Below, one piece after another: positions 4,645 to 48,419 of a stretch of 55,908 bases of DNA. The position numbers and the translations under genes are program-made. The DNA comes from a virus. Lineage: Duplodnaviria > Heunggongvirae > Uroviricota > Caudoviricetes. The notes under the pieces are model-generated. The model was not told the origin of the DNA. It did no database searches and saw only the letters and a list, made by a program, of their open reading frames with translations. Position 1 is the stretch's first letter. Each line of letters starts with the position of its first letter. The stretch is from positions 268,837-324,744 of IMG/VR virus record IMGVR_UViG_3300037424_001372; one strand, 5' to 3'.

Positions 4645-4709
4645 TTAATAAGTGTTGAATAGTTCGGGAGGTTTTCGCTTTCTATCCTGTACCAATCTTA
4701 TGCAAACCG

Positions 4710-4976
4710 TTATAAAACATTTAAAAGTTCCTTCGTTCTTGGAAGCCAATTGAAATCATCATCACTCACAGTATATTTTGCAAGTGCATCAATTAGTTCT
4801 ACTTTTAATTCATCTTGATTTGGTGCTATGTTCCTATTATCGTCTTTAGGGTAATTGCAAAATATACTACCTTTAGTCTTTGAAAATAGCCTATCGTCAA
4901 TACAATAACTACCTTTGTTTGTGGTGATTTCAATTGTGCCACCATCTAAATAACTGTCAATTTTTATAATTTTCAT
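4710..4976 (-). CDS. hypothetical protein (cassette gene)
   Basis: Stop codon lies in the GTTA core; unit bounded by GTTATAAAAC(4709) / GTTTTATAAC(4993). Confidence 0.75.
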   Translation of the reverse strand: MKIIKIDSYLDGGTIEITTNKGSYCIDDRLFSKTKGSIFCNYPKDDNRNIAPNQDELKVELIDALAKYTVSDDDFNWLPRTKELLNVL

Positions 4977-4986
4977 AATAAACGTT

Positions 4987-5105
4987 TTATAACAACAAAT
5001 ATATGCAATTATTTCATTACTTACAAATAAATGTTGTTAGTTAATATTAAGGTTGTTCTTAATATAAAGTTCTGTTATAACTGCTTATATTTGCAAACGT
5101 TAGGC
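4987..5105 (+). repeat. attC-like recombination site
   Basis: TATAAC-aa-CAAATATATGCAATTAT ... ATAACTGCTTATATTTG-caaac-GTTAGGC imperfect hairpin. Confidence 0.8.
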
Positions 5106-5287
5106 AACATTTAAGCCACTCACACAGCATCTTCAGGCACATGTTTTTGCGTAATTGTAGGGCAGTAGCCCGCATTTAGTTTCGTGTAATTAGACAGGGT
5201 TGTTTTCCGCAACCCTTACTGAATGATACGCTCAACGTTATTTTCAAGCGTAGGACTGCTCCATTGAAACGTCCTACGCTTTGATAA

Positions 5288-5518
5288 TTATTCCGCTGCT
5301 TCGAAGTCGAGGTAATATTCTTTTCCCACTTCGAAAAAATTAGCTGCTTCAGTTTCATAGCTAATCCACATATCGAGATTTGCGCTCGGAGTGTATTTGG
5401 CAAATGATTTGTTTTCATCGCTGTCAGAAATGACTGCACAAAAAGAAACCTGTTTTTGTTCGTATGCTGGCTGATCTTCAACCTTATTGCATACAAGTTT
5501 TGCGCGTACTTTTGACAT
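5288..5518 (-). CDS. conserved-looking phage hypothetical protein
   Basis: Likely start MSKVRAKLVC; ENKSFAKYTPS...YYLDF. Confidence 0.75.
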   Translation of the reverse strand: MSKVRAKLVCNKVEDQPAYEQKQVSFCAVISDSDENKSFAKYTPSANLDMWISYETEAANFFEVGKEYYLDFEAAE

Positions 5519-5550
5519 ATAAAATAGGGTTTTACAAAGCCCGCCCAAGG

Positions 5551-5778
5551 CTATATTTTTGGTATTTTAATTTCGGGATGTTCTTTTATGTACAGTTTTG
5601 CACCTTGCTTTAAGATTAAATGTAAATCATTTTCCTCTTTAAATTTTCTCCTCCATTTCTCAACTATATTTAAATAAACGATGTCATGAAATGGAGAAAC
5701 TAAAGTGTGTATGTCTTCTTTCAATCGTTTGTTTTCTTCGCAAACCTTTTGATAGACACTCCTACTTACATTGCTCAT
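5551..5778 (-). CDS. hypothetical protein
   Basis: Likely start MSNVSRS; the upstream extension reads through an attC arm. Confidence 0.65.
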   Translation of the reverse strand: MSNVSRSVYQKVCEENKRLKEDIHTLVSPFHDIVYLNIVEKWRRKFKEENDLHLILKQGAKLYIKEHPEIKIPKI

Positions 5779-6309
5779 ATATTTGATTTTAAATTGCCTT
5801 TTTAAAAACCGCCCAGTTGCTAACAAAGTATATAGCAAATTGGGGGTGTCGTTCCAATTTGAATACTTGTTTTTTCTTTTTTGAGTTTTTCATAACACTT
5901 TTCACATAGTATTTTTATAGGAGTATCCCAACTTCCTTGGTTGTTGGTACTTGCGCCACATTCATCACATCGTAAGTAAGCCATGATTTAATTTATTTAT
6001 AATTACAAATATCTACCGTAGTGCTTTTCTATCGCCTCAATAACGTCATCTAACCAAACAGCACCTTCAGCACCATTCGGTAAATATAGTTGTTCAATTT
6101 GTTTTAGTTTTTCGATTAATTCATCCATAATTTTTACATTGTTATAACAACAAATATAAAACATCTTATTTGTTTTTGGTACTCTTTTAAAGGTTTTCCC
6201 AACTCCCTTTTTATTTTGACTAAGAAAATGTGGCTCAGTATATAGTAAACATGTTCAAAATTTATGGTTGAGCTACTTATCACATATTCAACTAACCATA
6301 CCACCATCG

Positions 6310-6621
6310 TTATTGGGTATTTAAAAAGACTGCCATTCGTTTCGCAAAATCAATTGTAAAGTCATCTATTTTTGCATCCGAATAATCTTCAAAATCTTCA
6401 ACTGCTTTTTGTAAAAGTTTAGCATAGCATTCTGGACTACAAGCCATATAATGTATGTAGCTTTCACAACTATCATTTCCCCAAGAATTGTGGTGCCCGC
6501 TAAACTCATGCCAATCATCAGGCCGTTCATCTGAGTTATGTAATTTACCACAATTGTCGCACTTATAAGCAACCACAACTTTTTCTCTTTTTGTTACTTC
6601 TTTATATTCAATTATTTTCAT
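6310..6621 (-). CDS. CxxC-containing hypothetical protein
   Basis: CDNC and CSPEC motifs; stop codon in a GTTA core. Confidence 0.7.
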   Translation of the reverse strand: MKIIEYKEVTKREKVVVAYKCDNCGKLHNSDERPDDWHEFSGHHNSWGNDSCESYIHYMACSPECYAKLLQKAVEDFEDYSDAKIDDFTIDFAKRMAVFLNTQ

Positions 6622-6659
6622 AAGTTAAATAAATTAAAGTATTACAATCTTCATTTGTT

Positions 6660-6974
6660 TCATATTTTTATATTATTTAGATAATCATATTTTTCACCAG
6701 TATCACCATTTTCAATAATATAATCATCATGTGCGATTAAAGTATCAAAATTAGGTATATTTGAATTTAGTACTTCATTATTCTCACCAATCCAATCAAA
6801 TTCAAATATTGAACAGATTTCACCATCTTCAATATTATCTTTAATACCATTAAATAATGCAGATGTATATTTCATATCAAATACATCATCATCAATTGTT
6901 GCAATAGTTCCCTCATCATACCAAGTATTTGGTCTTGCAACAAATTTAATTTTTTTAAAATCTATTTTATTCAT
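6660..6974 (-). CDS. hypothetical protein
   Basis: Intact co-directional ORF. Confidence 0.7.
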   Translation of the reverse strand: MNKIDFKKIKFVARPNTWYDEGTIATIDDDVFDMKYTSALFNGIKDNIEDGEICSIFEFDWIGENNEVLNSNIPNFDTLIAHDDYIIENGDTGEKYDYLNNIKI

Positions 6975-7000
6975 AATTATATTAAATTTGTGTTTTCATG

Positions 7001-9301: not shown

Positions 9302-9670
9302 ATTAGTGTATTTAAATTGCGATTAATGATTCCTTAGAATATAAATCTTTTCATTTTTTAGTTAACGTAATACATTCAAAATCACATCTAATTCAGATTG
9401 AATTTCCACAAAATTATTATCATATAAATTATCGTATAGATATAGTTGCAAATCATCATTAAAAATATTATTCATATCCTGTCGAATATATTGTCTAATA
9501 TTATCAACTAATTTTGTTTGTAATGAAGTTTGTAATTCCATGATTTAGTTAATGTATGTTTAATGATTCTTGGGCTAATCCGTTACTCCACATAAAAATC
9601 TTTTTCATAATATTTTCTATTGTGAATTTATATTTACAAAAAAACGAAAACTAATCAATATTGTTACAAA

Positions 9671-13095: not shown

Positions 13096-13392
13096 TTATG
13101 CCTCATTCAAAGGCAACCAAATATCGTCATCTACATAGCATTTAGCCCAACCAGCAAGTTCATTGTATTTTTTAACATATTGCTCTGCGGTTGCCCTATT
13201 TACACAAACAACATCATCGTGTTCATTATCGCGCCATCTAACGATCCCATAAGAACGAGTCATATTAAATAAATCCAATAGCTGGTCTTGTGCTTCACTT
13301 ACAGCTATTCGTCCTCTATTAAGGTTCATTAGTATTTCATGCATTTGTTCTTCCATATCGCCACTGTGTTTATTATTTACGTTAGCAAACAT
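13096..13392 (-). CDS. hypothetical protein (cassette-like gene)
   Basis: Stop codon in CCGTTATGCC; true start may be downstream (MEEQMHE). Confidence 0.65.
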   Translation of the reverse strand: MFANVNNKHSGDMEEQMHEILMNLNRGRIAVSEAQDQLLDLFNMTRSYGIVRWRDNEHDDVVCVNRATAEQYVKKYNELAGWAKCYVDDDIWLPLNEA

Positions 13393-13625
13393 TAAGAAAA
13401 CGGGTCACCAATAACCGACTTTCTAATTCTAATCTTCCTTAATGCATCATGTATATCCATTTCAATCAAACCGAATGATTTTTCTCCTAATAAGATTGAT
13501 GATTCCAATGTATCTGGAACTAATGCCATTGGTTTGTAAATAACTTGTACACCCATTTCTTGAAGTTCTTTAATAACTTCTTCATTTGATTTTAAATCTT
13601 CGTTGTTTAAATTGTGTAGTATCAT
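13392..13625 (-). CDS. hypothetical protein (cassette gene)
   Basis: Inside unit GTTAGCAAAC(13381)...GTTTGCTAAC(13645). Confidence 0.7.
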   Translation of the reverse strand: MILHNLNNEDLKSNEEVIKELQEMGVQVIYKPMALVPDTLESSILLGEKSFGLIEMDIHDALRKIRIRKSVIGDPFS

Positions 13626-13638
13626 AATAATTAACGTT

Positions 13639-13729
13639 TGCTAACTGGGTATATAAGCTATACCCTGTTAAGATTCATACTAATTTGATAATTCAGTGCT
13701 AGGTACGGCTCATATACCCACCGTTATAC
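13639..13729 (+). repeat. attC-like recombination site
   Basis: GCTAAC-t-GGGTATATAAGCTATACCCT ... AGGTACGGCTCATATACCC-acc-GTTATAC. Confidence 0.8.
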
Positions 13730-13736
13730 ACAATGT

Positions 13737-13943
13737 TTATTCTTCCTTTGGCTCATAAACCACTTCAAAATATTTTAAAAACCACTCTTCGTCATTATTA
13801 AATGTGTACCATTTACCATCGCCAAAGAAAATAGCAAATGTTTTCATTTCTGGTAAATACGCAGTTATAATTCCACCATCACCCTTTTTAACTATATCAC
13901 CAATATTTTCTTTGGCTATTGCTGTACCATGATATATTTCCAT
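13737..13943 (-). CDS. hypothetical protein (cassette gene)
   Basis: Inside unit GTTATACACA(13723)...TGTGTATAAC(13990). Confidence 0.7.
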   Translation of the reverse strand: MEIYHGTAIAKENIGDIVKKGDGGIITAYLPEMKTFAIFFGDGKWYTFNNDEEWFLKYFEVVYEPKEE

Positions 13944-13983
13944 ACTTTTAATGTTTTTAAAAAATTTTTACACAAAACACTGT

Positions 13984-14102
13984 GTATAACAACAAATATA
14001 AAACATTTTATTCGTTTTTCAAAATAAAGTTTATACTAATTGTTAAATTATTTTTTTATTTAAGTTTCGTGTAAAAACGTTTCATATTTGCAACCGTTAT
14101 AT
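13984..14102 (+). repeat. attC-like recombination site
   Basis: GTATAAC-aa-CAAATATAAAAC ... GTTTCATATTTG-caacc-GTTATAT. Confidence 0.8.
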
Positions 14103-14108
14103 GCAACC

Positions 14109-14570
14109 TTAAAGAACATCCTGCAAGTATTGTCCAGAATCTAAAACAATATGCTTGCAATATTTTTGTTCTTTAAGTTCATTAATCCATATATGCCAAT
14201 GCTTCATAAATGTACCTATAATGTCATAATGACTATCTCGCTCAATATATCTATCCAAATACTCATTTCTACATTCGTTTTTGGGATAAACAAGAGTTAT
14301 TTCAAATCCTTCATCATGTAACAATTTCATACCATCTGGTTCGGTTGCAATAAAAATATAATCTACTTTACCGAATTGCGTTTTCACATCTTCAATATAT
14401 TCTTTGAACAAACCCTTTTCTTTATACTTCCAATATTCTACTTCAACAGCTTTAATGTCAGTGTTGTTGCAAATATATGTCTTACCAGCACCACAAAAGG
14501 CAGCACATAACAACGTGTTATACGTTATAGCCGTTTCAGTGGTAATTTGTAAGTTCGGTTCTTCGTTCAT
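14109..14570 (-). CDS. P-loop NTPase/kinase-like protein (cassette gene)
   Basis: Walker A-like AFCGAGKT; N-terminus encoded within the attC. Confidence 0.65.
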   Translation of the reverse strand: MNEEPNLQITTETAITYNTLLCAAFCGAGKTYICNNTDIKAVEVEYWKYKEKGLFKEYIEDVKTQFGKVDYIFIATEPDGMKLLHDEGFEITLVYPKNECRNEYLDRYIERDSHYDIIGTFMKHWHIWINELKEQKYCKHIVLDSGQYLQDVL

Positions 14571-14636
14571 ATTTTTGTATTTAATGATAAATTTGTTCTC
14601 GTAATCGGCTATAACGCATACACGCAGCCGTTATCG
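14505..14636 (+). repeat. attC-like recombination site
   Basis: ACATAAC-aa-CGTGTTATACGTTATAGCCG ... CGGCTATAACGCATACACG-cagcc-GTTATCG; one extra unpaired T in the left arm. Confidence 0.85.
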
Positions 14637-14642
14637 TCAACC

Positions 14643-14972
14643 TTAACCGACACTATCCAAATCCTTTCCTTTGACCGCTTTATAAATTTCAATAATATCT
14701 TTTTGCTCTTTTATCCAGCGAAAGGCAACTGCGTAATACTTTCCATAACTCATTTCACCACAACCAACAAGGAAATCATTTTCGTTCCATTCAGTTACTG
14801 GAGTGTTGAAAAACAGTATTACTCCCTCCTTTACAAAGTAATTCATTTTAAAATTTTCAAACGGACTTTGACTTTCCTCTACCAATTTGAAGCCCTTACT
14901 AAGAAGAAATGCTGCCGATAACACGCCATATACTCCATTGGCGGGTTCGTGGGTATCCTTAGTTTCTGTCAT
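14643..14972 (-). CDS. hypothetical protein (cassette gene)
   Basis: Unit GTTATCGTCA(14630)...TGCCGATAAC(14922). Confidence 0.7.
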   Translation of the reverse strand: MTETKDTHEPANGVYGVLSAAFLLSKGFKLVEESQSPFENFKMNYFVKEGVILFFNTPVTEWNENDFLVGCGEMSYGKYYAVAFRWIKEQKDIIEIYKAVKGKDLDSVG

Positions 14973-20324: not shown

Positions 20325-20473
20325 AAACAACATTATCAATAAACATATGACCAACTAGAATTTATAATTATTCAATTTTTCAAATTTCCCTAAACTAAAT
20401 TCGTCATTATTTTTCACAATCAATTAGTTAATTGACATTGTTGATATATAATAGATAGTTAGCAAACATAAAA

Positions 20474-20650
20474 TTATTCACGCTTACCTCGTATTTCAAT
20501 ATCCGCACCAATTAACTGTTCAGGGCATTCCGTATGGTAGCCTTGTAATCTTGCCCAAAAATCTCGTTTAATCATATTAAGTTCTTCATCAGTTAATTGA
20601 TGCTTTACTTTCACACTAATTTCGTATTTGTATTCAAAAATTTCATCCAT
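20474..20650 (-). CDS. hypothetical protein (cassette gene)
   Basis: Unit GTTAGCAAA(20458)...TTTGCTAAC(20669); likely start MDEIFEY. Confidence 0.65.
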   Translation of the reverse strand: MDEIFEYKYEISVKVKHQLTDEELNMIKRDFWARLQGYHTECPEQLIGADIEIRGKRE

Positions 20651-20662
20651 AATTTTACGATT

Positions 20663-20755
20663 TGCTAACAAGCAATATATGTTATTGCCTATTAAGGTTT
20701 ATACTAATTTTTAAGTTTCGTGCTTGGCAACTACATATATTGCCATCCGTTATGT
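20663..20755 (+). repeat. attC-like recombination site
   Basis: TGCTAAC-aa-GCAATATATGTTATTGCC ... GGCAACTACATATATTGC-catcc-GTTATGT; close paralogue of 48114-48206. Confidence 0.85.
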
Positions 20756-20767
20756 GTAAGGCTAAAA

Positions 20768-21109
20768 TTACAACTCTGAAACATAATCTTTCCACTCATC
20801 TTCAGTTCTACCTGTACCATATTTCAAAATCATATCTCTCTGTGTTTTTTCATCCAAACACGATTGATTTACTAAAATTGTATAATAATTCAATTTAGCT
20901 TTTTGTATTTGCCCAGAAATTGATTTTCGGTAATTTTCATTTCTTTCACATTGCCACAAATCTTTGTTCTACATATACCATTTTTCAATACCCATTAACA
21001 CTTCTTGTCTAAGACTTTCTGTGTTCATTTTATATTGGTATTTTGAATTTAGATGATCATCTAAACCATCCACCTTAACTGTCAATTCTTTTGGTTTTTC
21101 TATCCCCAT
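20768..21109 (-). pseudogene. cassette gene interrupted by an in-frame TAG
   Basis: MGIEKPKE...EKWYM*NKDLWQCER, TAG at 20969-20971; unit GTTATGTGT(20749)...ACACATAAC(21150). Confidence 0.6.
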
Positions 21110-21275
21110 AATTTTTAATATTAATGATCAAATAAATAACCACACATAACATGCAATGTATTATTTGTACTAATTTTGAAGCGTTCTGCCTCGCATTAAC
21201 GTTAGTGCGACTCGATAGGCTTGTATCTCGTAATCAGCCACAGCCATATTGCCAACCATTATAAGTAATAAAAAA

Positions 21276-21587
21276 TTAATCAGATATTTTAGTTTCAATA
21301 AATTCTATCTCAATAAGTTTAGAACATGAAGATTTATGAATTGACATATCATCATGAATCATAACAAATCCAGAATTATCAAAACCTAAACATTCGCCAA
21401 ACATATTGGGATAATCTTTATGTTTTCCGATCTTATATAATATTTTATCACCTTTTATTATTTCATTTTCATCAGTAATGTAGAATTTATTATTTTGTTT
21501 AATTAATTTTTTACTACTGATAACATCAAATATATTCAAGTTTTCTTGTGCTTCGTTGAAACTTTTTATGCGTTTTAAATCTTTCAT
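21276..21587 (-). CDS. hypothetical protein
   Basis: MKDLKRIKSFNE N-terminus; LNIFDVISS segment is an attC arm read antisense. Confidence 0.65.
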   Translation of the reverse strand: MKDLKRIKSFNEAQENLNIFDVISSKKLIKQNNKFYITDENEIIKGDKILYKIGKHKDYPNMFGECLGFDNSGFVMIHDDMSIHKSSCSKLIEIEFIETKISD

Positions 21588-21731: not shown

Positions 21732-21824
21732 TTATAACAACGTGTATAAAACATAACCAATTAAGGTATGTGGTTTATATCAAGCGTTGTGTATAGCTAC
21801 GTTTCATACACACAACCGTTATCG
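21732..21824 (+). repeat. attC-like recombination site
   Basis: TTATAAC-aa-CGTGTATAAAAC ... GTTTCATACACA-caacc-GTTATCG. Confidence 0.8.
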
Positions 21825-21830
21825 GCAACC

Positions 21831-22193
21831 TTAAAACAGCTCCGATATATCATTAAACTGTGATTTATGAATTTCACATTCTTTTGGCATTGGAATATTT
21901 TCATCATCACCTAAATCAAAATGATTTCCTTTAATTTGATTTTTAGGTGTATATAAAAAACATTTCTTTTCTGTGCAGTAAAGTAAATCAACTTTGCGTT
22001 CCCATTCACTACCGTTGTAATAATTACCATATATTTCGGTTTCTTTTTTATCCAAATTTTTACAATGGAAGCACGGTCTATCATTCAATGGATTTTTACT
22101 ACATGCTTTTTCATGGTATTCCATTTTAGACTTGCTTAGTCCGTGTTTTTTACAATGCTCGCAATAAAATACTTCTTTAGTTTTTGATTTCAT
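21831..22193 (-). CDS. Cys-rich Zn-binding hypothetical protein (cassette gene)
   Basis: YCEHCKK...HEKAC...CFHC; unit GTTATCGGC(21818)...GCCGATAAC(22224). Confidence 0.75.
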   Translation of the reverse strand: MKSKTKEVFYCEHCKKHGLSKSKMEYHEKACSKNPLNDRPCFHCKNLDKKETEIYGNYYNGSEWERKVDLLYCTEKKCFLYTPKNQIKGNHFDLGDDENIPMPKECEIHKSQFNDISELF

Positions 22194-22217
22194 GTCTTAA
22201 TAATTAAAAAAGGCAGC

Positions 22218-22310
22218 CGATAACACGTAATATAAAAAATTGGTTATCAAACCGCTGTGGTAAATTTAAAGTGTCTGCAAAGCCAACTTTTTATATTACC
22301 ACCATTATGT
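22218..22310 (+). repeat. attC-like site with mutated core (ATT instead of GTT)
   Basis: CGATAAC-ac-GTAATATAAAAAATTGG ... CCAACTTTTTATATTAC-cacc-ATTATGT. Confidence 0.75.
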
Positions 22311-22842: not shown

Positions 22843-22876
22843 ATTAAATTTTCGTTAAGTGTTATTTAATATACAT

Positions 22877-23113
22877 TTAGCGGTAATTCTTTTCAAACTC
22901 CGCTATACTTAGTTCTTTCTTTTTGATATTTATCCACATCTGTAATACTTCTTCAAATTCTTCTAATGTTATATTGGTAGTAGCCATCATTTCAGCCTTC
23001 AACCATTCATAAACATCTAATTTGGAACTACCGCTAACAACAGATAAACTCAATTGCTTTCTGTATTGGTCAACGATAGTTAGTGCTTCTTTATACTGTT
23101 CATCTGTTATCAT
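22877..23113 (-). CDS. hypothetical protein (cassette gene)
   Basis: Start codon in the attC loop; QLSLSVVSGS is encoded by the attC left arm. Confidence 0.7.
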   Translation of the reverse strand: MITDEQYKEALTIVDQYRKQLSLSVVSGSSKLDVYEWLKAEMMATTNITLEEFEEVLQMWINIKKKELSIAEFEKNYR

Positions 23114-23161
23114 AATTTTGTTATTTTAATTCGCGATTGCGTTTATCTGCAAACGTTATCG
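23032..23161 (+). repeat. attC-like recombination site
   Basis: CGCTAAC-aa-CAGATAAACTCAATTGC ... GCGATTGCGTTTATCTG-caaac-GTTATCG. Confidence 0.85.
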
Positions 23162-23371: not shown

Positions 23372-23497
23372 ATATTTAATTAATAAAAACGAAACGCTAA
23401 CAAATGGTATAAAAAATTGCGGGTGTATAGCAGTCCGTAGGTTTGTAATTCTAATTAATATTTGTGTTCTATATTAAATGTTATGTGTTAATTGTAG

Positions 23498-23614
23498 TCA
23501 GAGTGGGAGGAATCGAACCTCCGTTTAGCTCGTTAGCAAAGGTTTGCTTTCACATCTACCTTTTCTGCCGAAGTTATTTAGGCATCCCACTTATCCAATT
23601 TGCGGTACACTCTG
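23498..23614 (-). ncRNA. tRNA-like RNA with abnormal anticodon arm and ~40-nt variable insert
   Basis: Acceptor CAGAGTG/CACTCTG, D-arm, T-arm GGAGG-TTCGATT-CCTCC; no 7-nt anticodon loop. Confidence 0.7.
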
Positions 23615-23632
23615 TTTTATAAAAACAACTAC

Positions 23633-23686
23633 TTATAACAACAAATATATTGTATTGAAACGACAATATGTTTACAGTCGTTACAT
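23633..23686 (+). repeat. short attC-like site
   Basis: TTATAAC-aa-CAAATATATTGT...ACAATATGTTTA-cagtc-GTTACAT; related degenerate copy at about 23914-23966. Confidence 0.55.
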
Positions 23687-23690
23687 ATAA

Positions 23691-23888
23691 TTATTTTAAA
23701 TTTTTGAGTTGTTCATATAAACCTTGTCCAACTATCATAAAGTTGCCTTTTGGTTCGTTTTTTTTACATTCTAAGTCAATCAACTCTTGTGGTATTTCAT
23801 CATCGTCATTGTATATTTCAAACAAGGGAAGGTATGGTACATAGCCCATTTGTTTCACAATAAACTTCATCGCTTCTTTCTTTTTCAT
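23691..23888 (-). CDS. hypothetical protein
   Basis: Likely start MKKKEA. Confidence 0.6.
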   Translation of the reverse strand: MKKKEAMKFIVKQMGYVPYLPLFEIYNDDDEIPQELIDLECKKNEPKGNFMIVGQGLYEQLKNLK

Positions 23889-24007: not shown

Positions 24008-24271
24008 TTAAAAAACACCGTCTGCCAGTATTTCATCAATAAATTTAGATGACATTTCGTCTTGTTCTTTCGATGCCCTGTGTTCAATTTTAAAGGATAC
24101 TACTTTGTCAGATTTTTTAGTGTTAATAAAATCTTCTAATTTTTGATAACTATCAGAGTTTGAATAAAGAGTAATTGTTCTATCGTTTCTCCAATCATTA
24201 TCAACTTTGAAATTTATAATAAATCTGTGAGTAAATCCTTCAAACTGTTCTTTTGAATACTTAATTTCCAT
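24008..24271 (-). CDS. hypothetical protein
   Basis: Follows the GTTAGCG core at 23995. Confidence 0.7.
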   Translation of the reverse strand: MEIKYSKEQFEGFTHRFIINFKVDNDWRNDRTITLYSNSDSYQKLEDFINTKKSDKVVSFKIEHRASKEQDEMSSKFIDEILADGVF

Positions 24272-24415
24272 TTTTGAATATGTTTTAAAATTTTAATAAT
24301 TAAATAAAAACGGCATGTAACATATAGTATGTCGCATATGGGTTTTATTTGTTATTAGCGTTGCCGTAGGGTGACTGTGCGTACCTTCTAATACCACACG
24401 AAGCCAACGTTATAC

Positions 24416-24646
24416 TCAGTTAAAGCCTTCGAGTAGAACTTCTAACCAAATTTTAGCTTCCCTTACATTACCAATAATATACATTTCTTGAGCATCGCTC
24501 AATTCGTTGAGTAATTTTTGTTTTTTGTCATTTTCAATTTCTAATGTTCCTGCCGTTTTGGAAACATGTGAATAAACTTTATATTGCTCAACATCATTTA
24601 GTTTGGCAAGTACATGTTCTATTGCTTTCTTTTGTAATTTCATCAT
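24416..24646 (-). CDS. hypothetical protein (cassette gene)
   Basis: Unit GTTATACTC(24409)...GGGTATAAC(24672). Confidence 0.7.
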   Translation of the reverse strand: MMKLQKKAIEHVLAKLNDVEQYKVYSHVSKTAGTLEIENDKKQKLLNELSDAQEMYIIGNVREAKIWLEVLLEGFN

Positions 24647-24675
24647 TTTTTAAATTTAAAAATGGGTATAACACA

Positions 24676-25080: not shown

Positions 25081-25417
25081 GTGGTTAATTTTTAAATTTT
25101 GTTTTGTTTTAAGTTATTTGTTTGAAATTCAATAAAAAACTGGCACTAACATACTGCAATGGTAATTTTGTTAGTAACACTAAAAAGACAGCAAATCGTT
25201 GTCAATTTCTTCACTGTTTAATATTTTTATATCTCGTAAATGAAACCAAATTATGTATTGTTCGGCAAGTAAAAATTGATATACAGTTTTATCAATTTCA
25301 CATATAATACCTTCTGTTCCATTATACAATTTAACTTTGTCACCAATTTTTACAATCATTTTTTCATCTTATTTTAAGAATATCCACGTCTCCATTATAT
25401 TAATTAGTTTAATTTTG

Positions 25418-25488
25418 TTGACCTACAAGGATTTGAACCTCGACTAACAGAACCAAAATCTGCTGTGCTACCATTACACAATAGGTCA
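25418..25488 (-). tRNA. trnQ: tRNA-Gln (UUG)
   Basis: TGACCTA/TAGGTCA acceptor, GCAGA-TT-TTG-GT-TCTGT anticodon arm, TTCAAAT T-loop. Confidence 0.92.
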
Positions 25489-25524: not shown

Positions 25525-25896
25525 TTATTTACGAAGTTTCTCCAAATCTTCGATTAACATTTCCCTTAATTTACCCTCTTGTTTTTCGGCAATAAGAGAA
25601 TCAATTTTCTGATTATGCGCCTTAATGTCGGCAGCATTTCTAAGTTCGTCAGCTTCTTTTTTCTTTGACAAATATACATCTTTCAGAATGTCAAACCTAA
25701 GTTGATTTTCAATATCAACCACTTTCGTATCTTCCAAAAAAGATAACTCGTCATCATCATTCTTTTTTAACACTTTTTTTACTGCTTTAATAGCATTTGA
25801 CAACTGTGTTTGAGATAAATCCCAAAGTTGTTCTGCCGATAATTGACCCACATTAGTCAAAAATCTTAATTTTAATTGTGATGCCTGTTTGTACAT
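25525..25896 (-). CDS. conserved phage coiled-coil protein
   Basis: ASQLKLRF...GQLSAEQLWDL...LRFDILKDV pattern; adjacent to the ~700-aa gene. Confidence 0.8.
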   Translation of the reverse strand: MYKQASQLKLRFLTNVGQLSAEQLWDLSQTQLSNAIKAVKKVLKKNDDDELSFLEDTKVVDIENQLRFDILKDVYLSKKKEADELRNAADIKAHNQKIDSLIAEKQEGKLREMLIEDLEKLRK

Positions 25897-25915
25897 AATT
25901 TTTAAATTTAAGTTA

Positions 25916-28012
25916 TTAAAATTTTATTTTGATTGTTCTTTTAAAGCTCCCTTGCAATTTTACAATAAGCTCGTCTTTTACTGTTGCATTAAATCCAAGT
26001 CCAGATAATTGTTTTTCGACAGGTTCGATCATCGTGGTATTACCAAGCACCTCTAAAACCTTTCGGTGTTGAGCTAACTCAGGAATAAGATTTTCAGCAT
26101 GAAAAGACCTTATTGAAACAGGACATTTGCAATTATCAAGCATAAATAAATAATGCTTATTCCCCGAATTGCTACCCGTCCAATGATTAGGAGACAAACA
26201 AACCAAGTTTACTTTATGAAATTGTTCAGTTTGTAATCCGTATAATTCTTTTGATGAATATGATTCCTTTTGATGATGTTCTATTGAAAATATTCCGTTT
26301 TTCAATGTTACTGTAGCAATAGCTGTATCATTTTTTATATTGCCCAAACATTCATAAGAATAAATTTCTCCTTCAATTTCAATCTCAGCTTTAAATCCTG
26401 AGTTATTATTCCCATCGAAATTCCTATTGAAAAAATAATATCTACCATCCATCATTTGGGCTTTATTTTGCCATGTAATATTTTCAACCCCTAATTTAGA
26501 TGGTCAAATCATATCCACATCAAGCCACCCCTTTGTATATTTATCCTGTTTGTTTGAAAAATAAATTTCAGTTACAGGAGTTTTACAATGAGCATCAAAA
26601 TCAACAATACTTCTGCCATCTTCGTTCCAAATAATGGAAAACCTCAATATCCCATCAACTCTACCACCAGCAGTTTTTACTGCTTCTTTAATCTGAGATT
26701 TTCCAGCTAAATTACCATTAAAAGTCCATGAATAATTATTTGGCCATTTAAAAATAGGTTTACTTTCTTTAATGTTTGCTGTGGTTAAGGATACTAAATT
26801 GCCTTCGTGTTTATTTGACAAATAAACCTCAACAGAAGTGCATTCAGGTAAAATATCCTGCATGAATTTTTCAATCGAAACTTCGTCAATACCATCAAAC
26901 TCGCTTTTTTTATGCCTCGTTGAAGTCGATTTTAAACCATCAAAAATCGATACAGGCTTAATCTCCCCCTTACCAACATTTACATGAAGAATTTCTGAAG
27001 CTTTGATATCATCAATGGTCGCAAATCTTCTGTTAAAAGATTCTTCATATCCATTTTCTTCGACAAACTTTTTAGCCTCTTCAATTTGCCTTTTAGTTAT
27101 TGGAGCAACTGCTTTCATGTAATTAGCTGGATCAACCCTCTTGTTCCATGCTTGACAAGCATCATTTAACTCCTTTCCCTCCGCAAGTTCAGTACACAAA
27201 ACACCGATTAACTCATTTTTGAATTTGGCGAATTGAAGTTTATAGGAATTTACCCAACACCAATTGTCTTTTTTATCAACAGAAAGCAAATCGTACTGAT
27301 TTTTCATCGGTATCACCTGTTCAATTTTATATAGATGGGTTTGACCATCCAATAAGCTGCCTTGATTAATAAGGTCTTTTACTAAATTCAAAGTATCTAA
27401 AGGTATCTCTGCCATAGCCCTTTGAAATACGTTTTTCGCATCCCGATAATCAGCCATTATTGATTCAATTGACTTACTACCCATGTCAACAAATTGTTTT
27501 GAAACAAATAAATGTAAATGGTTGAAAGTCTTAATTTCTTCAGGCTTAACTACACCATATTTTTCAGCTTCTTCTTTAGTGTATCGTTTTACATTCTTAT
27601 CAACACCCAATTTAAATAAAGTATTGTTTTTATTGCAACTTTCGTAAGGTAATGAGTTTAATTCATTGAAAGTTTCAAAAAACACCTCTGAAATTTTAGC
27701 TGCTTTTAAGGCAACTGAAATTGATTTTACAACCGAAATAAATTCATCAGAAGCATCAATATCAAACATTGTGATTATATTGTAGGCTTCATCAACGGCA
27801 ACAATATTCCCATACCTACGAATGAAGTTTTTACACAAATTACAATTATGAGTAGAGCTTTCAGGGTCTCTAAAAATAGGATCGTATTTTTTTTCGAACC
27901 CATTAATGTATAAATCCCAAACTTGCTGTCCAGTTAAAGAACTCCTGAACAATTTTCCTGTAGCACACATTTTATCAAATTGTGCTTGAATCATTTTTGT
28001 TAATTCAATCAT
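25916..28012 (-). pseudogene. ~698-aa phage protein split by one in-frame TGA
   Basis: ORFs 26504-28012 and 25916-26455 are in frame: WLDVDMI*PSKLGVENITW, TGA at 26504-26506. Confidence 0.75.
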
Positions 28013-40430: not shown

Positions 40431-40516
40431 TACCGAGAATGGGAGTCGAACCCACACGGACATTACTGTCCACAAGATTTTAAGTCTTGCATGTCTACCA
40501 ATTTCATCATCTCGGC
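40431..40516 (-). tRNA. trnL: tRNA-Leu (UAA)
   Basis: GCCGAGA/TCTCGGT acceptor, CAAGA-CT-TAA-AA-TCTTG, long variable arm, GTGGG-TTCGACT-CCCAT. Confidence 0.95.
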
Positions 40517-42029: not shown

Positions 42030-42100
42030 AATAATATGATTTAATTACAATTTATAATTAATACGAAAATTTCGTACAATGGTTACAGTATTAAAATAAA

Positions 42101-42137: not shown

Positions 42138-42139
42138 AG

Positions 42140-42368: not shown

Positions 42369-42376
42369 TTATATAA

Positions 42377-42402
42377 TACGAACATTGTTGTTTAATGTTA
42401 CA
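42377..42402 (-). promoter_or_regulatory. phage promoter motif (identical 26-mer at 44397-44422)
   Basis: TACGAACATTGTTGTTTAATGTTACA. Confidence 0.8.
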
Positions 42403-43531: not shown

Positions 43532-43621
43532 ATTTTTTTTTGTTTATATTATGATACGAACATTGCGGTTAAATGTTACAAAAAATCCCTTACATTGCTG
43601 TAAGGGGGATTTTAATTAATA

Positions 43622-44365: not shown

Positions 44366-44480
44366 GTTGAGTGTATTAATTATTGTATATGGGTTATACG
44401 AACATTGTTGTTTAATGTTACAAGTATTTGCAACAGTTATTTGGGTCGGTGGTTTATTATTGTATTTTTAGGTTGTGTCA

Positions 44481-44723
44481 TTACCATTCCACAGCAAACT
44501 TCCATCCGTTTAAGATAATGGTTTTTGCATCTATTTTTGGTTGTCTCATATTTGTGGGTATTGTGGCTTTTAATTCACCATCTTTATAAAATTCTGTTCT
44601 ATAACCAACAAAACCACCTTTATCAGATACTTTTACTTTTTTCGCTTTAAGAGTAATTAACTCACCAATCTTTGCTTTTGTCATAATAAAATTCATTAAA
44701 TTGTTTATTAACAACATAAACAT
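44481..44723 (-). CDS. hypothetical protein
   Basis: ORF; true start probably MTKAKIG. Confidence 0.6.
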   Translation of the reverse strand: MFMLLINNLMNFIMTKAKIGELITLKAKKVKVSDKGGFVGYRTEFYKDGELKATIPTNMRQPKIDAKTIILNGWKFAVEW

Positions 44724-44784
44724 ATAAAAAAATGGATGTAAATATTAATACGATTCCAAATTAAATTTGTTACATAGTTTTTAA

Positions 44785-45537
44785 TTAAAAATTCAATAAT
44801 TCCTTTATAATGCCATTCAACCATTGAACCTTGTCGTTATTTAATTTAGTATCATTGGTCATATATAATCGTTTATTAATTTCAATCATTATTGATTGTA
44901 CATTAACATCTTTTTGATAAAATTTGGTAGGTACCAATGAACCTGAATAGGGATTGTTAGTTTCAACAGTCAATCCATATTTTTTGAAGTGGTTAATCAA
45001 ATAAAATGTTAAAAAATTGGGGGTGTGAAAATTATCAATACCAATACAAATGTCGGGTCGATTTGAATCATTTTCATACCACAATCTATTATCATTGAAC
45101 GAATGACAATCAATGATAATTGCCTGACCATTTTTATTTAAGATTGATTGAACTACATCTGTTAGATTACTATGATAAGGAATGAAGTAATTTGTAAGCA
45201 CATCCCAATAATCTGAATAATCAAATTTTCTCAATTTTTTATTGTCAATAGTATGAGTATAGTATAAGCCACGGCCATAACTATCCATTGTTTCACCTAT
45301 GATAAAACGTTCAACATCACAAAACAACCTATTAAAATCACAAGTAAATTTTTTAATATTATCTACTTGAAAGATTTGATTGGTTGCGATATCTGTTGAA
45401 AGCAATAGTTCTTTATTCAATTGCACTTCATCTAACAAGAACGAATCTTTATTAGGTATATGCTTTGATGAGTGGGGTATGTGCAATAAAATACTATCTT
45501 TAATTGTATCACCGAATAAATTTAAATCATTTACCAT
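44785..45537 (-). CDS. N-formylglutamate amidohydrolase (FGase family)
   Basis: LHIPHSS, TDIAT, NRLFCDVERF, PYH, IDCHSF, RPDICIG, NNPYSG, SIMIEINKRLYM. Confidence 0.9.
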   Translation of the reverse strand: MVNDLNLFGDTIKDSILLHIPHSSKHIPNKDSFLLDEVQLNKELLLSTDIATNQIFQVDNIKKFTCDFNRLFCDVERFIIGETMDSYGRGLYYTHTIDNKKLRKFDYSDYWDVLTNYFIPYHSNLTDVVQSILNKNGQAIIIDCHSFNDNRLWYENDSNRPDICIGIDNFHTPNFLTFYLINHFKKYGLTVETNNPYSGSLVPTKFYQKDVNVQSIMIEINKRLYMTNDTKLNNDKVQWLNGIIKELLNF

Positions 45538-45628
45538 ATAAGTGAAATAAAAATTGGTTTGACTTGTACAATACTATACGAATCAAACCAATTAAAGTTA
45601 CAAATCAGATAATGGTTTTAGTTATAAT

Positions 45629-46213
45629 TTATCCATTGTATTTACGATAAATAACATCTTGTTTACCATATTTTTCTCTAAATTTACCATCTGGGTCATA
45701 TTCAGGGTTATAGCTATCTCTTTTATATTCTTCAAATCCAGCATTTTTATATAGTTGTGTTAAAAATCCATCGAAATGATCTAAATATTTACCACCGTTT
45801 TTAACAGCATTTTTAATTAAATCCTGACCAATGCCAGTTATATCAGGTTCATTATTATGTACAGCAACAATCTCAGAATATTGCCCATCATCAAATTTCT
45901 TTAAAGCATATCCAATGTTTAATTCAGGTACTTTAAACAATCTCATTTGACTTAAATCAGATACACTATAATGAGTTAACATGTCAGGATGTTTACTTTT
46001 CATTAATGAATCATAAAATTCTTGTGGGGTTGTGCTTAATTCATTTTTATTTAAAGCACTTAAAACAAACTGTTTTTTATTTTCATCACCCTCATTCAAA
46101 TTGGTTTTAAATAAAATAGTATTGTTGTAATGCTCAAACATTTTTAATTTAAAACGATGTACATCATTAGTTTTGGTTTTATTAACCTTATCGAACATTT
46201 CAAATAACTTCAT
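45629..46213 (-). CDS. GNAT-like domain protein
   Basis: IVAVHNNE..ITGIGQDLIKNAVKNGGKYLDHFDGFLTQLYKNAGF. Confidence 0.55.
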   Translation of the reverse strand: MKLFEMFDKVNKTKTNDVHRFKLKMFEHYNNTILFKTNLNEGDENKKQFVLSALNKNELSTTPQEFYDSLMKSKHPDMLTHYSVSDLSQMRLFKVPELNIGYALKKFDDGQYSEIVAVHNNEPDITGIGQDLIKNAVKNGGKYLDHFDGFLTQLYKNAGFEEYKRDSYNPEYDPDGKFREKYGKQDVIYRKYNG

Positions 46214-46364
46214 AATTATTAATATTTATAATAATAAATACAATAAAAAAACGTTAACTAATCAAAGTTAACGTTTTAAATTTTAAAATATTATGACACC
46301 TTTCCACCTAATTGAATATCAAAAGAGCCATTGTGAATGTTACAAGGGTTTTAACTAAAATTGA

Positions 46365-47414
46365 TTAGACAGTTTCCAATAAATATTCCAAAACCTTTGA
46401 ATCTTTTTCGCGCCTTACTTCTGGTGATGCAATGTTTCTGTTATCGTCAAAAATATAGGAGTTGATTCCATTATAAATCAGCCAATTATTTACTTTGCCA
46501 TTATAACCCAAAGTAGTGTGGTTTGCTTCATAATTGATCTTATCAAGAATACTGTTTACTTTTTCTTGATTGGTTTCGATCAATTTGTTGTACATTGCCT
46601 GTTCTTTTACAGACATTGTGGCAACATCCTTTTCTTTCTCTTTGTTAACAATGCCCATAACATTAAGGACCTCACGAACCCTATCTTCAACATTGGCAAC
46701 AAAGCTACCACCAAGTTTCTCATACCTTGATATAATGGTTTTATTAACATTTTCAAAATTGGCAACCAAGTCGATCAATATGTTTTGAAATTGTTCCAAA
46801 GAATGTAAAATTGAATTGGTGTGTTTACCCTCTAACGAAAGATTAAACCTTTTCATTTCTTTTATTGGTATTGTCAGGCCATTTGAGCAAATTAATCTGT
46901 GATAACCTGCAATACCTTTGTATTTGGTCAAACCGTTGTAAGAGTGTTGAAAGTTCCAAATGAATTTAATCTCATCATTTGTACCGTCCATTTTATATGA
47001 AAACCTTGGGTCTTCAATAACAAAATCACCATAAAAACGTGCATGGTTGGTGTGGCTGTAAGTTGCCTTATAAGCAATGCCAAGGGTTTTGAAAATTTCT
47101 TCAACCTTTGGAAAGATTTCAGAATTTGGAACAAGTTCATAAACATTCGAACAGTAGTTCAAATCAATTTCAGAATCAATCTTTTTTACCTTTGGGTTTT
47201 CATCCAACATTGTCTGAAATTCGGTTGGCGTTAAAGTCTCTTTCATTAAAATAAGTTCTTCATTCGAGAAATAAGGAACTTTTTGAGAAATAACCCCACG
47301 AACGATTTTGGTATATTCACTGTTAGTTCTACGTGGATTGTCAATCAATTCCACTGGAAAACAAAGTTCTTCAAGTGAACAAGTTGTTGTGCCCATTTTT
47401 AGTTTCTTAGCCAT
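46365..47414 (-). CDS. DUF932-like protein
   Basis: Y.LVPN..IF, QHSYNG, GYHRLICSNGL, ...WLIYNGIN pattern. Confidence 0.55.
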   Translation of the reverse strand: MAKKLKMGTTTCSLEELCFPVELIDNPRRTNSEYTKIVRGVISQKVPYFSNEELILMKETLTPTEFQTMLDENPKVKKIDSEIDLNYCSNVYELVPNSEIFPKVEEIFKTLGIAYKATYSHTNHARFYGDFVIEDPRFSYKMDGTNDEIKFIWNFQHSYNGLTKYKGIAGYHRLICSNGLTIPIKEMKRFNLSLEGKHTNSILHSLEQFQNILIDLVANFENVNKTIISRYEKLGGSFVANVEDRVREVLNVMGIVNKEKEKDVATMSVKEQAMYNKLIETNQEKVNSILDKINYEANHTTLGYNGKVNNWLIYNGINSYIFDDNRNIASPEVRREKDSKVLEYLLETV

Positions 47415-47593
47415 GATAGTGCTTTTAATTGGTTTCTGTGTATAATACGATTCTAATTAAAGTTTGTTACAGGTTTTATTTAAAATTATTTGCATTGGCG
47501 AGTGCTAAAATTGAAGTTTTTGTTTTCATAATAAATTTATTTAAAGTTGATAATTCTGTTCTTTGTAATCGGCAGTTTTCATATTGCCAACCG

Positions 47594-47761
47594 TTATAAC
47601 CGATAAAATTTTAACCACATGAAACAACCAAACGGTAGTGGTACTGTGGTCAATAAATGCCAGAATATAAATCCAAGCGCAAATAAAGCATCATCAGTTT
47701 CATGTGGTTTTACCATCATTTTAATAAATCCGTATATCGGTATAAAGTATGTCCATTTCAT
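47594..47761 (-). CDS. 55-aa membrane peptide (cassette gene, missing from ORF track)
   Basis: MKWTYFIPIYGFIKMM...LKFYRL*; unit GTTATAACC(47593)...GGTTATAAC(47786). Confidence 0.6.
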   Translation of the reverse strand: MKWTYFIPIYGFIKMMVKPHETDDALFALGFIFWHLLTTVPLPFGCFMWLKFYRL

Positions 47762-47779
47762 AATATAAAATTTTACAGG

Positions 47780-47874
47780 TTATAACAAGGCGTATAATAA
47801 AGTTTGCTATCAGCAGTTGTACATAATTTGAAAGTTTCTACAACCAAACCTTCTCATACACCCAACCGTTAGCA
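47780..47874 (+). repeat. attC-like recombination site
   Basis: TTATAAC-aa-GGCGTATAATAAAGTTTG ... CAAACCTTCTCATACACC-caacc-GTTAGCA. Confidence 0.8.
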
Positions 47875-47878
47875 AACA

Positions 47879-48100
47879 TTAAGAACCAACCTCTCTAACA
47901 TTTGATGGTGGTACTGTATAATATTTATTTTCTACTTCATCGTGTAAATATACCTTACCACCCTTTGTCCACTTAATTAAACGTAACTCAGTTTTACTAA
48001 ATATTATTTTACGCAATCCACCATCAAAAGCCAAATCTTTTTTATTAGTAACATATACCATTTTTCCTATTGCTTGGTCTATAAAATCCTTTGTTGTCAT
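47879..48100 (-). CDS. hypothetical protein (cassette gene)
   Basis: Unit GTTAGCAAAC(47868)...GTTTGCTAAC(48120). Confidence 0.75.
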   Translation of the reverse strand: MTTKDFIDQAIGKMVYVTNKKDLAFDGGLRKIIFSKTELRLIKWTKGGKVYLHDEVENKYYTVPPSNVREVGS

Positions 48101-48113
48101 AATAATTAACGTT

Positions 48114-48206
48114 TGCTAACAAGCAATATATGTAATTGCCTATTAAGGTCTATACTAAATTTCAACGTTCATGCAAGGCAACTACATATATTGCTGACCA
48201 TTAGGC
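48114..48206 (+). repeat. attC-like site with mutated core (ATTAGGC)
   Basis: TGCTAAC-aa-GCAATATATGTAATTGCC ... GGCAACTACATATATTGC-tgacc-ATTAGGC. Confidence 0.8.
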
Positions 48207-48215
48207 ACAATAAAA

Positions 48216-48356
48216 CTAATCCTCTTGCAACCTTTCAAGTTCATAATTAATAAGTGCCTTTTCATCGAGTTGATTTATCTTTCGTTCAATATCTTCTCTT
48301 TGTTTAAGTAGCTCGACTACTTCTTCATTTTCTGTCACTTTACTAAAATCTATCAT
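48216..48356 (-). CDS. 46-aa coiled-coil peptide (cassette gene, missing from ORF track)
   Basis: MIDFSKVTENEEVVELLKQRE...; unit TTAGGCACA(48201)...TGTGCCTAAC(48381). Confidence 0.6.
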   Translation of the reverse strand: MIDFSKVTENEEVVELLKQREDIERKINQLDEKALINYELERLQED

Positions 48357-48419
48357 AATTTTACAATTTACTGTGCCTAACAAACAATACGATAGGCTGT
48401 TACTAATTTTTGAAACGTC

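Follow-up and report, generated by a model that had tools for sequence, protein, structure and literature searches.

Integrons are the textbook bacterial gene-capture device, and the domain specific to their integrase, IntI, is thought to be needed for work on folded attC DNA. Integron-like gene exchange in viruses is hardly recognised. Here we describe arrays of small gene units with self-complementary ends, separated by hairpins, in a 55,908-nt stretch of viral DNA (the window), which is the final 56 kb (268,837–324,744) of the 324,744-bp IMG/VR virus record IMGVR_UViG_3300037424_001372. We estimate a probability of about 80% that these units belong, as gene cassettes, to a site-specific recombination system of integron-like type in Bacteroidota phages.

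Several described systems share parts of this organisation. Val and colleagues reportedly found in 2005 that XerCD uses a folded single-stranded DNA hairpin during integration of the CTX phage. The pdif modules of Acinetobacter plasmids are Xer-dependent mobile modules (PMC7399989). In both, as proposed here, an Xer-type recombinase without the IntI insertion moves gene modules with inverted flanking sites, and CTX shares the use of a folded hairpin. However, the enzymes are host XerC/D and the sites are 28-bp dif-like sequences, and neither system is known to have arrays, an attI-like platform or gene-specific end complementarity. The promoter-early stem-loop (PeSL) cassettes of T4-type phages (Arbiol et al. 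2010, PMC2839356; Comeau et al. 2014, PMC4122927) resemble the present arrays in several ways: promoter/stem-loop modules recur between small genes that are non-essential, the setting is the hyperplastic regions of large phages, and genes are shuffled. Mini-circles have been observed for PeSLs. PeSL shuffling proceeds by homologous recombination between near-identical repeats, in contrast, and involves no recombinase gene, insertion site or gene-specific complementary ends.

Enzyme-less clusters of attC sites lacking integron-integrases (CALINs) have been reported from phages. When Qi et al. (2023, Front Microbiol, PMC9892861) applied attC software to 10,705 phage genomes, they obtained 17 CALINs, including some in virulent phages, with two predicted sites per phage. 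One of the sites, P12002L_attC1, predicted by HattCI, is a short member of the hairpin family described below (TAACGG..TCGTTTTAATG loop..GTTAGGC). That report differs from the present analysis in describing no family, own-end frames, dedicated recombinase or attI-like site. A first, sequence-only reading of the window knew of no system of this kind described in lytic Bacteroidota phages. This has to be amended for P12002L_attC1, which had already been predicted (PMC9892861), and it stands for the combination of recombinase, junction and array, of which a full-text literature search found no description.

Cassette frames and the hairpin family

The record as a whole has a G+C content of 27.6% and is rated 100% complete by CheckV. 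The minus strand carries nearly all window genes, and the elements are therefore best read on this (sense) strand, which applies to all frames and hairpins of the window given below. Each unit has the sense-strand form GTTA-N6-G..ORF..T-N6'-TAAC, in which the word at the start (R') is complementary to the word at the end (R'') of the same open reading frame (ORF) unit. All 13 word pairs listed in the sequence-only reading are present (the second figure of each pair of coordinates being the end of the second word). The further unit that it had called degenerate, 21258–21524, is also in place, but has about 23 paired positions. In total, at least 14 framed units occupy four clusters in the window, and further ones lie at 223–245 kb of the genome. 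In the 14 window units, 9–10 nt pair perfectly or nearly so, followed by 4–12 further pairs beyond position 11, and position 11 itself is a G.T wobble in 12 of the units. Pfam and PHROGs searches with ten cassette proteins returned one family of unknown function and otherwise no match.

The ends pair within a unit far more often than chance predicts. Using 444 crude gene calls from the whole genome, we compared words made of GTTA and 5 or more following nt, no farther than 70 nt from a start codon, with the reverse complement within 45 nt of the stop codon of the same gene. Ten genes show an own-end match, against 0.20 expected from all cross-gene pairings. Three further cases are located outside the window, at 226–239 kb; they are on the plus strand, as are the genes of that region. 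Among 113 non-redundant cassettes from many phages, an own-end run of at least 5 is found in 63, against about 2 expected by cross-pairing. The match after GTTA is exactly 6 nt long in 48 of these cassettes and 5 nt in 15 (1.3 and 0.7 predicted), and position 11 is G.T in 83 of the 113. Pairing across one hairpin, between the word before TAAC and the word after GTTA, reaches a run of at least 5 in 3 of 167 cases, which is the chance level. The earlier claim that ends pair within their own unit and not across the adjacent hairpin is thus borne out twice, by 10 versus 0.2 genes in this genome and by 63/113 versus 3/167 in the family. The ends of some cassettes are unmatched, e.g. those of 24008–24271.

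Between the units lies a hairpin, H, whose sense strand consists of TAAC, a 5-nt spacer (mostly GGTTG), a stem of ~20 bp, a loop, the returning stem, TT and GTTA. The plus-strand form given earlier (AAC, 2 nt, arm...arm, 5 nt, GTT) is correct and corresponds to TAAC-GGTTG-arm...arm-TT-GTTA on the sense strand. H occurs in length classes of about 44, 84–89 and 113–126 nt. The window contains nine intact copies in four clusters, plus degenerate ones, and their sequences align within one family with copies from other phages. Forty aligned copies of the 84-nt class, among them six window copies, show compensatory double changes, which preserve the structure, at 18 of the 20 stem pairs; three stem positions are conserved G.U-type wobbles. 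When only Watson–Crick pairs are scored for detection, the stem mismatches comprise 338 G.T/T.G and 51 A.C/C.A, an asymmetry indicating that the gene-sense strand is the strand selected to fold. In two window copies the right arm carries a perfect Bacteroidota-type promoter motif (TTTG, 19–20 nt, TATATTTG), read directly from the sequence. Given this motif, the hairpins may also act in expression.

The loop of H is variable in content. In a site class of ~125 nt (14508–14633, 23035–23158 and genome 243,124–243,249), an ORF starts in the loop, so that translation runs through the right arm, GTTA and R'; in several phages the arm encodes the shared peptide ..KKLHISDV... In two other contigs, L010 (3822–3950) and L099 (minus strand, ~5300–5425), the loop of a 124-nt hairpin site carries two tRNA T-arm-like hairpins (GGTTCGAnTCC), indicating that it can carry foreign inserts.

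The family extends to other phages and to bacteria. An exact-pattern scan of IMG/VR returned 117 loci, about 45 of them with true elements, often in arrays. The cultured, virulent Polaribacter phage P12002L, which has a flavobacterial host, contains H-type elements, and its methyltransferase gene is framed by GTTAGGCAC/GTGCCTAAC. A longer pattern also matched Bacteroidota genome contigs, including the genome of a Flavobacterium cheonanense isolate.

Comparison of these genomes reveals which segment behaves as a unit. Four phages have in common the upstream H, the stretch from R' through the 5' untranslated region (UTR) to the ATG, and a 24-nt R'', but differ in the ORF, the preceding cassette and the following hairpin. 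Contigs L041 and L117 are 83.5% identical over exactly H, the ORF and R'', the identity ending at TAACGG on both sides. Both comparisons define the unit as GG-H-GTTA-N6..ORF..N6'-TAAC, with the hairpin belonging to the downstream gene. 'Empty frames' exist as well, in which an 11-nt loop instead of an ORF separates R' from R''.

Pure chance is refuted by the gene-anchored test, by recurrence and by stem covariation. Inverted repeats arising by chance or from low complexity in AT-rich DNA, taken together with some other hairpin-dependent mobile element (IS200/IS605 or REP/RAYT), make a highly improbable account of the units. Three counts lean towards it. Without anchoring to genes, 32 GTTA..TAAC pairs are found in the genome where other 4-mer cores predict ~17; a frame finder with relaxed settings (TAAT permitted, up to 2.6 kb) gives 83 hits against 106 in a reversed-sequence control and was dropped as a counting tool; and a longest-common-substring test of gene flanks is dominated by AT-rich repeats. 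The enrichment of only about twofold in the unanchored count indicates that the signal is specifically gene-flanking, in words that contain G or C, and with gene anchoring it stands at 10 versus 0.2. In addition, the architecture recurs in dozens of unrelated contigs. As for other elements, no Y1/HUH transposase was found in the present genome, and its three serine recombinases are missing from five other array-bearing phages.

A recombinase beside the arrays of related phages

Of five other array-bearing phage records, four have a single tyrosine recombinase gene next to the array. The four enzymes are 266–270 aa long and 75–78% identical to the copy in contig L149, used as reference; in Bacteroidota contigs, a 41–44% identical recombinase adjoins H. 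In two of the bacterial contigs, L158 (a Crocinitomicaceae metagenome-assembled genome) and L159 (Flavobacterium cheonanense JCM 17069), hairpins and recombinase are convergent, a platform geometry that differs from that of the phages.

With the phage recombinases as query, 60 full-length loci were collected. Their 235 H copies are distributed with strict polarity: 228 are upstream of the recombinase gene and on its strand, 6 are downstream of it and 1 is on the opposite strand, with slightly more sequence examined downstream than upstream. In nearly all of the 60 loci, the conserved sequence TATnATATAT directly follows a variable R'' that ends in TAAC. This junction lies 40–75 nt upstream of the recombinase start, and the ORFs read toward it and the recombinase gene. 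Judged by its arrangement, the junction TAAC|TATnATATAT has the layout of an attI site, and it is called attI-like below.

Pairs of nearly identical platforms locate the point of exchange. Contig pairs L214/L216, L232/L233, L213/L216, L191/L197 and L213/L214 are 100% identical for 300 nt to the right of the junction (L209/L226 behave alike at 99%), but their left sides are unrelated (26–38% identity), and the identity runs only 4–6 nt past the junction, i.e. through TAAC. Contigs L185 and L197 are 99.9% identical through a cassette to TAAC; there L185 continues with attI, and L197 has 2,443 nt of extra cassettes before its attI. Between L218 and L219, a replaced block of cassettes is bounded by TAACG| and |TATAAC-attI. 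The 4–6 shared bases at the breakpoints are too few for homologous exchange, and the pattern is typical of site-specific recombination at a fixed point; these sequence comparisons indicate that cassettes are exchanged between platforms in a site-specific, not a homologous, manner. Gain or loss of units at G|TT (TAAC on the sense strand), which had been suggested as a check on the cassette idea, is found in relatives of the system rather than of the present phage.

The relatives' enzyme is closer to Xer proteins than to IntI. Among NCBIfam models it matches XerA_Arch ('tyrosine recombinase/integron integrase') best, with 171–195 bits against a cut-off of 220, and the integron-integrase model TIGR02249 matches only as two pieces, with 151–161 bits against a cut-off of 265. 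The enzyme aligns end to end with Pyrococcus abyssi XerA (4a8e), and with VchIntIA (2a3v) over residues 21–180 only. We take this partial alignment, together with the short length of ~267 aa, to mean that the enzyme probably lacks the IntI-specific insertion. The proposal that the units are IntI-type cassettes is accordingly half right: they behave as cassettes and their arrays abut a tyrosine recombinase gene, but the enzyme is Xer/XerA-like, below the model cut-off and apparently without the IntI insertion. The integron-style picture offered with it also needs adjusting; cassettes with hairpin sites are present, but the hairpin goes with the downstream gene and the ORFs point to the insertion site.

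The following mechanism would account for the arrays; it builds on the observed anatomy and covariation, the polar linkage to a recombinase gene and the nucleotide-level breakpoints between related platforms. A cassette would have the sense-strand form C-GG-H-GTTA-N6-..ORF..-N6'-TAA. On circularisation, N6'-TAAC, H and GTTA-N6 would join as one long imperfect hairpin, the attC-like site. The Xer/XerA-like tyrosine recombinase of ~267 aa would then exchange this site with the attI-like TAAC|TATnATATAT, at a point within TAAC (G|TT when read on the opposite strand). In this scheme, the folded DNA sense strand would be the substrate and the recombinase the catalyst, and cassette circles would exist. 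Exchange at the attI-like site beside the enzyme gene would cause new cassettes to accumulate on one side of that gene.

The correspondence with integrons and CALINs is extensive. In both, ..AAC and GTT.. boxes delimit an imperfect hairpin that is kept in structure and not in sequence, the cassette start is complementary to its own end, and one strand folds better than the other. In both, the array is polar and adjoins a conserved insertion site next to the gene of a tyrosine recombinase (here in the relatives), and the exchange point lies in the AAC/GTT core. Site types are homogeneous, the ORFs are unrelated to one another and mostly of unknown function, and arrays without an enzyme occur. 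The geometry also matches if the antisense strand is taken as the attC 'top' strand. The recombinase gene and the array are then divergent, G|TTA-N6 comes after attI, cassettes end in N6'-TAAC plus hairpin as in integrons, and the better-folding strand is the 'bottom' strand; the putative TAA|C exchange side is the counterpart of AA|C in the R box of the bottom strand. The ORFs, however, lie here on the bottom strand, directed toward attI.

Other features set the two systems apart. The canonical integron cassette is a promoterless ORF followed by attC and read away from attI and the promoter Pc, whereas H stands 5' of the ORF, two window copies of H carry a promoter motif and the ORFs point to the insertion site and the recombinase gene. 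Own-end complementarity extends over 10–24 nt with a conserved G.T at position 11, compared with 7 nt in integrons. The stems have conserved wobbles and an internal loop of 5 nt against 2 nt, where integron sites have extrahelical bases; some loops hold promoters or the start of an ORF; the carriers are phage genomes; and the relatives' enzyme of ~267 aa is Xer/XerA-like, apparently without the IntI insertion.

A role at the RNA level has to be weighed against recombination. H could be a promoter/terminator or an RNase processing hairpin, and the GTTA-N6/N6'-TAAC frame could form a processing or stability stalk between the 5' and 3' ends of each small mRNA, as in rRNA processing stalks or T7 RNase III sites, with shuffling as a by-product of homologous recombination between the repeated modules. 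For PeSLs, both shuffling and mini-circles are on record (PMC2839356, PMC4122927). Of the two strands, the gene-sense strand is favoured for folding, and its conserved G.U-type wobbles occupy fixed places in the stem as well as position 11 of the frame; H is always 5' of the ORFs and co-oriented with them, with a perfect TTTG/TAnnTTTG promoter motif in two window copies; and the module of H, R' and 5' UTR ends exactly at the ATG before different genes. Three observations make this account unlikely. First, the breakpoints between otherwise identical platforms share 4–6 nt (TAAC), which is too short for homologous exchange; unlike PeSL repeats, H copies vary in sequence yet keep their pairing. 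Second, the arrays are strictly polar relative to a tyrosine recombinase gene and a conserved junction. Third, a search with a 502-aa window protein yielded 27 loci that have only three genes in common with the window and essentially no hairpins. The absence of H near this shared three-gene module, in contigs whose module proteins are at most 82–89% identical, argues that H is not a lineage-wide expression signal. An RNA role could coexist with recombination.

Beyond the cassette reading itself, we lean, by a narrow measure, towards a broader proposal. The arrays would belong to a separate, virus-centred integron-like lineage, in which an insertion-less Xer/XerA recombinase joins folded sense-strand hairpins at TAA|C to an attI-like site. 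The cassettes would carry the site, sometimes with a promoter or first codons, 5' of the ORF, the pool would be common to large Bacteroidota phages and host chromosomes, and orphan arrays would be serviced in trans at co-infection.

Orphan arrays in the present genome

The window was earlier noted to contain no integrase, and the whole 324,744-bp record has none either. Searches with PF00589, the integron-integrase model and the relatives' protein found no tyrosine recombinase in the whole genome, contrary to the suggestion that an integrase might be encoded elsewhere in it. Three attI-like junctions are nevertheless present, at genome 227,665 (plus strand), genome 242,902 (minus strand) and window 20,415–20,461 (minus strand), each sharing TATnATATATCAACA and the ..AATTGATT-start with the junctions of the relatives. 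The ORFs behind them are short (72, 63 and 20 aa), with a weak likeness to the recombinase over about the first 19 residues that is too weak to call.

The genome also has three small serine recombinase genes (resolvase-domain, ~204–218 aa) at 204,561–204,944 (plus strand), 235,694–236,110 (minus strand) and 250,306–250,689 (minus strand). As candidates for the missing enzyme they were rejected, none being located beside an attI-like junction or present in the five other array-bearing phages.

The arrays of the present genome are orphan, CALIN-like platforms. The label CALIN-like had been used before and fits, with at least two sites clustered and no integrase, on condition that H is an attC-type site. 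Cassette mobility in this genome is inferred; any current mobility would need an enzyme from the host or a co-infecting phage. The arrays are either serviced in trans by such an enzyme or recent relics, and their well-kept frames and stems argue against long neutral decay.

Alternatively, the arrays could be fossils, laid down by a recombinase gene since lost from three truncated platforms, with inactive sites and accessory genes that retain leftover flanks. The record, rated as complete, has no tyrosine recombinase; the three attI-like junctions are followed only by the short ORFs; and several sites are degenerate or halved and some cassette ends are unmatched, as at 24008–24271. However, 12 of the 14 frames keep the 10-nt match, the wobble at position 11 and the extension, and nine hairpins are intact, where neutral decay is expected to erode both. 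Related recombinases in other phages and in Bacteroidota chromosomes could, moreover, act in trans. We regard fossil arrays as very unlikely; they would in any case be a variant of the cassette reading, alike in origin and different in present activity, and not another origin.

Several points weigh against the cassette reading. The present genome has no recombinase of the relatives' kind, and no close relative of the phage is available to reveal cassette gain or loss in its own lineage. The relatives' enzyme falls below the family cut-offs and apparently lacks the IntI insertion, and its action on H sites is putative. P12002L_attC1 is the one family member with an experimental test, and IntI1 recombined the other five phage sites of that study but not this one (PMC9892861). 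An RNA role would fit equally well with sense-strand folding, with the conserved wobbles of G.U type and with H standing 5' of the ORFs. Finally, identical flanks around unrelated ORFs, as in window units 13381, 20458 and 47868, are unexplained by the model. The origin of cassettes is likewise unexplained for integrons.

Megablast of 8 kb of the window and blastn of one hairpin gave no match among GenBank phages, and a 766-aa window protein as query found no relatives of the phage. The contigs of one public DNA run, probably from the source sample, matched the window only as fragmentary pieces and joints from other organisms and spoke neither for nor against excision. Host and lifestyle of the present phage we infer; P12002L, the hits in bacterial genomes and the promoter motif suggest Bacteroidota as the host.

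In the window, the cassette reading accounts for dozens of small ORFs bracketed by inverted repeats, which matters for annotation. More broadly, the hallmarks of integrons (own-end complementarity, a structured hairpin, a polar array, an insertion site and precise exchange) occur in large phages, linked to a short Xer-like enzyme. If this enzyme is confirmed, integron-type chemistry would not need the IntI insertion, large phages would have a concrete mechanism for rapid turnover of their small accessory genes (the ORFan pool), and a common exchange system would join the gene pools of phages and hosts in Bacteroidota. Its many natural sites, of several types, would also serve for probing what folded-DNA recombination sites require.

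Elements and other features of the window

The first array is small. Its cassette, 4709–4993 (ORF 4710–4976, 88 aa), has R' GTTATAAAAC at 4984–4993 and R'' GTTTTATAAC at 4709–4718 (sense), with 10 nt of perfect pairing, the G.T and 4 more pairs; the same frame word recurs in other phages, around a cassette and as 'empty frames'. The 113-nt hairpin 4990–5102 stands 5' of this cassette and has the promoter motif in its right arm (TTTG, 20 nt, TATATTTG). A half site at 4692–4712, TAACGG plus the left arm only, follows the cassette and ends the array.

In the second array, cassette 13381–13645 is framed by GTTAGCAAAC/GTTTGCTAAC and contains ORF 13392–13625 (77 aa), its R'' overlapping the start of the next ORF, 13096–13392. 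It is followed upstream by an 85-nt hairpin (13642–13726), cassette 13723–13990 (GTTATACACA/TGTGTATAAC; ORF 13737–13943, 68 aa) and the 113-nt hairpin 13987–14099, whose right arm contains the second promoter motif (TTTG, 19 nt, TATATTTG). Frame 14096–14511, with one wobble-compatible mismatch, encloses most of ORF 14109–14570 (153 aa, P-loop-like, phrog_4182). The start codon of this ORF lies in the loop of the next hairpin, 14508–14633, of the 126-nt class, so that the right arm and R' are coding. Frame 14630–14922 (GTTATCGGCA/TGACGATAAC, one mismatch) lies inside and around ORF 14643–14972.

The third array includes the attI-like remnant 20415–20461, which reads TAAC, then TATCTATTATATATCAACA and ..AATTGATTGTG, with a 20-codon ORF where the relatives have the recombinase gene. 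The adjoining cassette, 20458–20669, has the frame GTTAGCAAA/TTTGCTAAC and ORF 20474–20650 (58 aa). Hairpin 20666–20752 (87 nt) separates it from cassette 20749–21150 (GTTATGTGT/ACACATAAC), which holds small ORFs (20969–21109 and others). Next come a degenerate hairpin site at 21147–21261, with a TAAT core and arms that pair only with an indel, and the frame 21258–21524, with an ATTA/TAAT core, inside ORF 21276–21587. Cassette 21818–22224 (GTTATCGGC/GCCGATAAC; ORF 21831–22193, 120 aa) lies between two 87-nt hairpins, 21735–21821 and 22221–22307, the latter with a TAAT core. Frame 22876–23038, (G)TTAGCGGTA/TACCGCTAA, is within ORF 22877–23113, whose stop codon is inside R'' and whose start codon is in the loop of hairpin 23035–23158, of the 124-nt class. 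Cassette 24409–24672 (GTTATACCCA/TGAGTATAAC, one mismatch) contains ORF 24416–24646 (76 aa) and is followed by a hairpin-like stretch, 24318–24412. Between a cassette end and the R'-like word GTTAGCGTTTCG lies a tRNA-like piece, 23498–23613 (minus strand), with a T-arm-like GGAGGTTCGATTCCTCC and complementary ends AGAGTG../..CACTCT; ARAGORN made no call there, and an Rfam E-value search of 23380–23720 was empty.

The array at 47.6–48.4 kb ends in a half site, 47565–47596, consisting of TAACGG and a short local hairpin. Its first cassette, 47593–47786 (GTTATAACC/GGTTATAAC; ORF 47594–47761, 55 aa), has ~20 paired positions, and the 89-nt hairpin 47783–47871 is of the commonest 84-nt-class type, common to many phages. 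Cassette 47868–48120 has the frame GTTAGCAAAC/GTTTGCTAAC and flanks identical to those of unit 13381–13645, but an unrelated ORF (47879–48100, 73 aa). An 87-nt hairpin with a TAAT core (48117–48203) leads to the last cassette, 48200–48381 (GTTAGGCACA/TGTGCCTAAT; ORF 48216–48356, 46 aa).

The three-gene module at 25525–28012 (minus strand) encodes proteins of 123, 179 and 502 aa and is common to the 27 viral contigs (at most 82–89% amino acid identity), with which the rest of the surrounding 30 kb is not shared; the 502-aa protein has no Pfam match. ARAGORN predicts tRNA-Gln(TTG) at 25417–25488, tRNA-Leu(TAA) at 40430–40516 and a 96-nt tRNA-Ile(AAT) at 36741–36836. At gathering score, Rfam reports two tRNAs only, leaving tRNA-Ile(AAT) without confirmation. 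At ~35,560–36,504 (minus strand), the 608 nt after the stop codon of ORF 36001–36504 read as the C-terminal part of an N6/N4 DNA methyltransferase (..HPTQKP.., ..GSGTT..), which suggests a gene interrupted by a stop codon or frameshift.

A second intergenic signal, distinct from the cassette hairpins, precedes many genes between 42,000 and 55,400 (minus strand). It consists of TGTAAC, ~17 nt and TTCGTAT, for example at 55267–55349, 54976–55053, 50583–50670 and 44721–44787, and is often preceded by a G+C-rich hairpin and a run of T. By its composition, it looks like a phage-specific promoter with a terminator.

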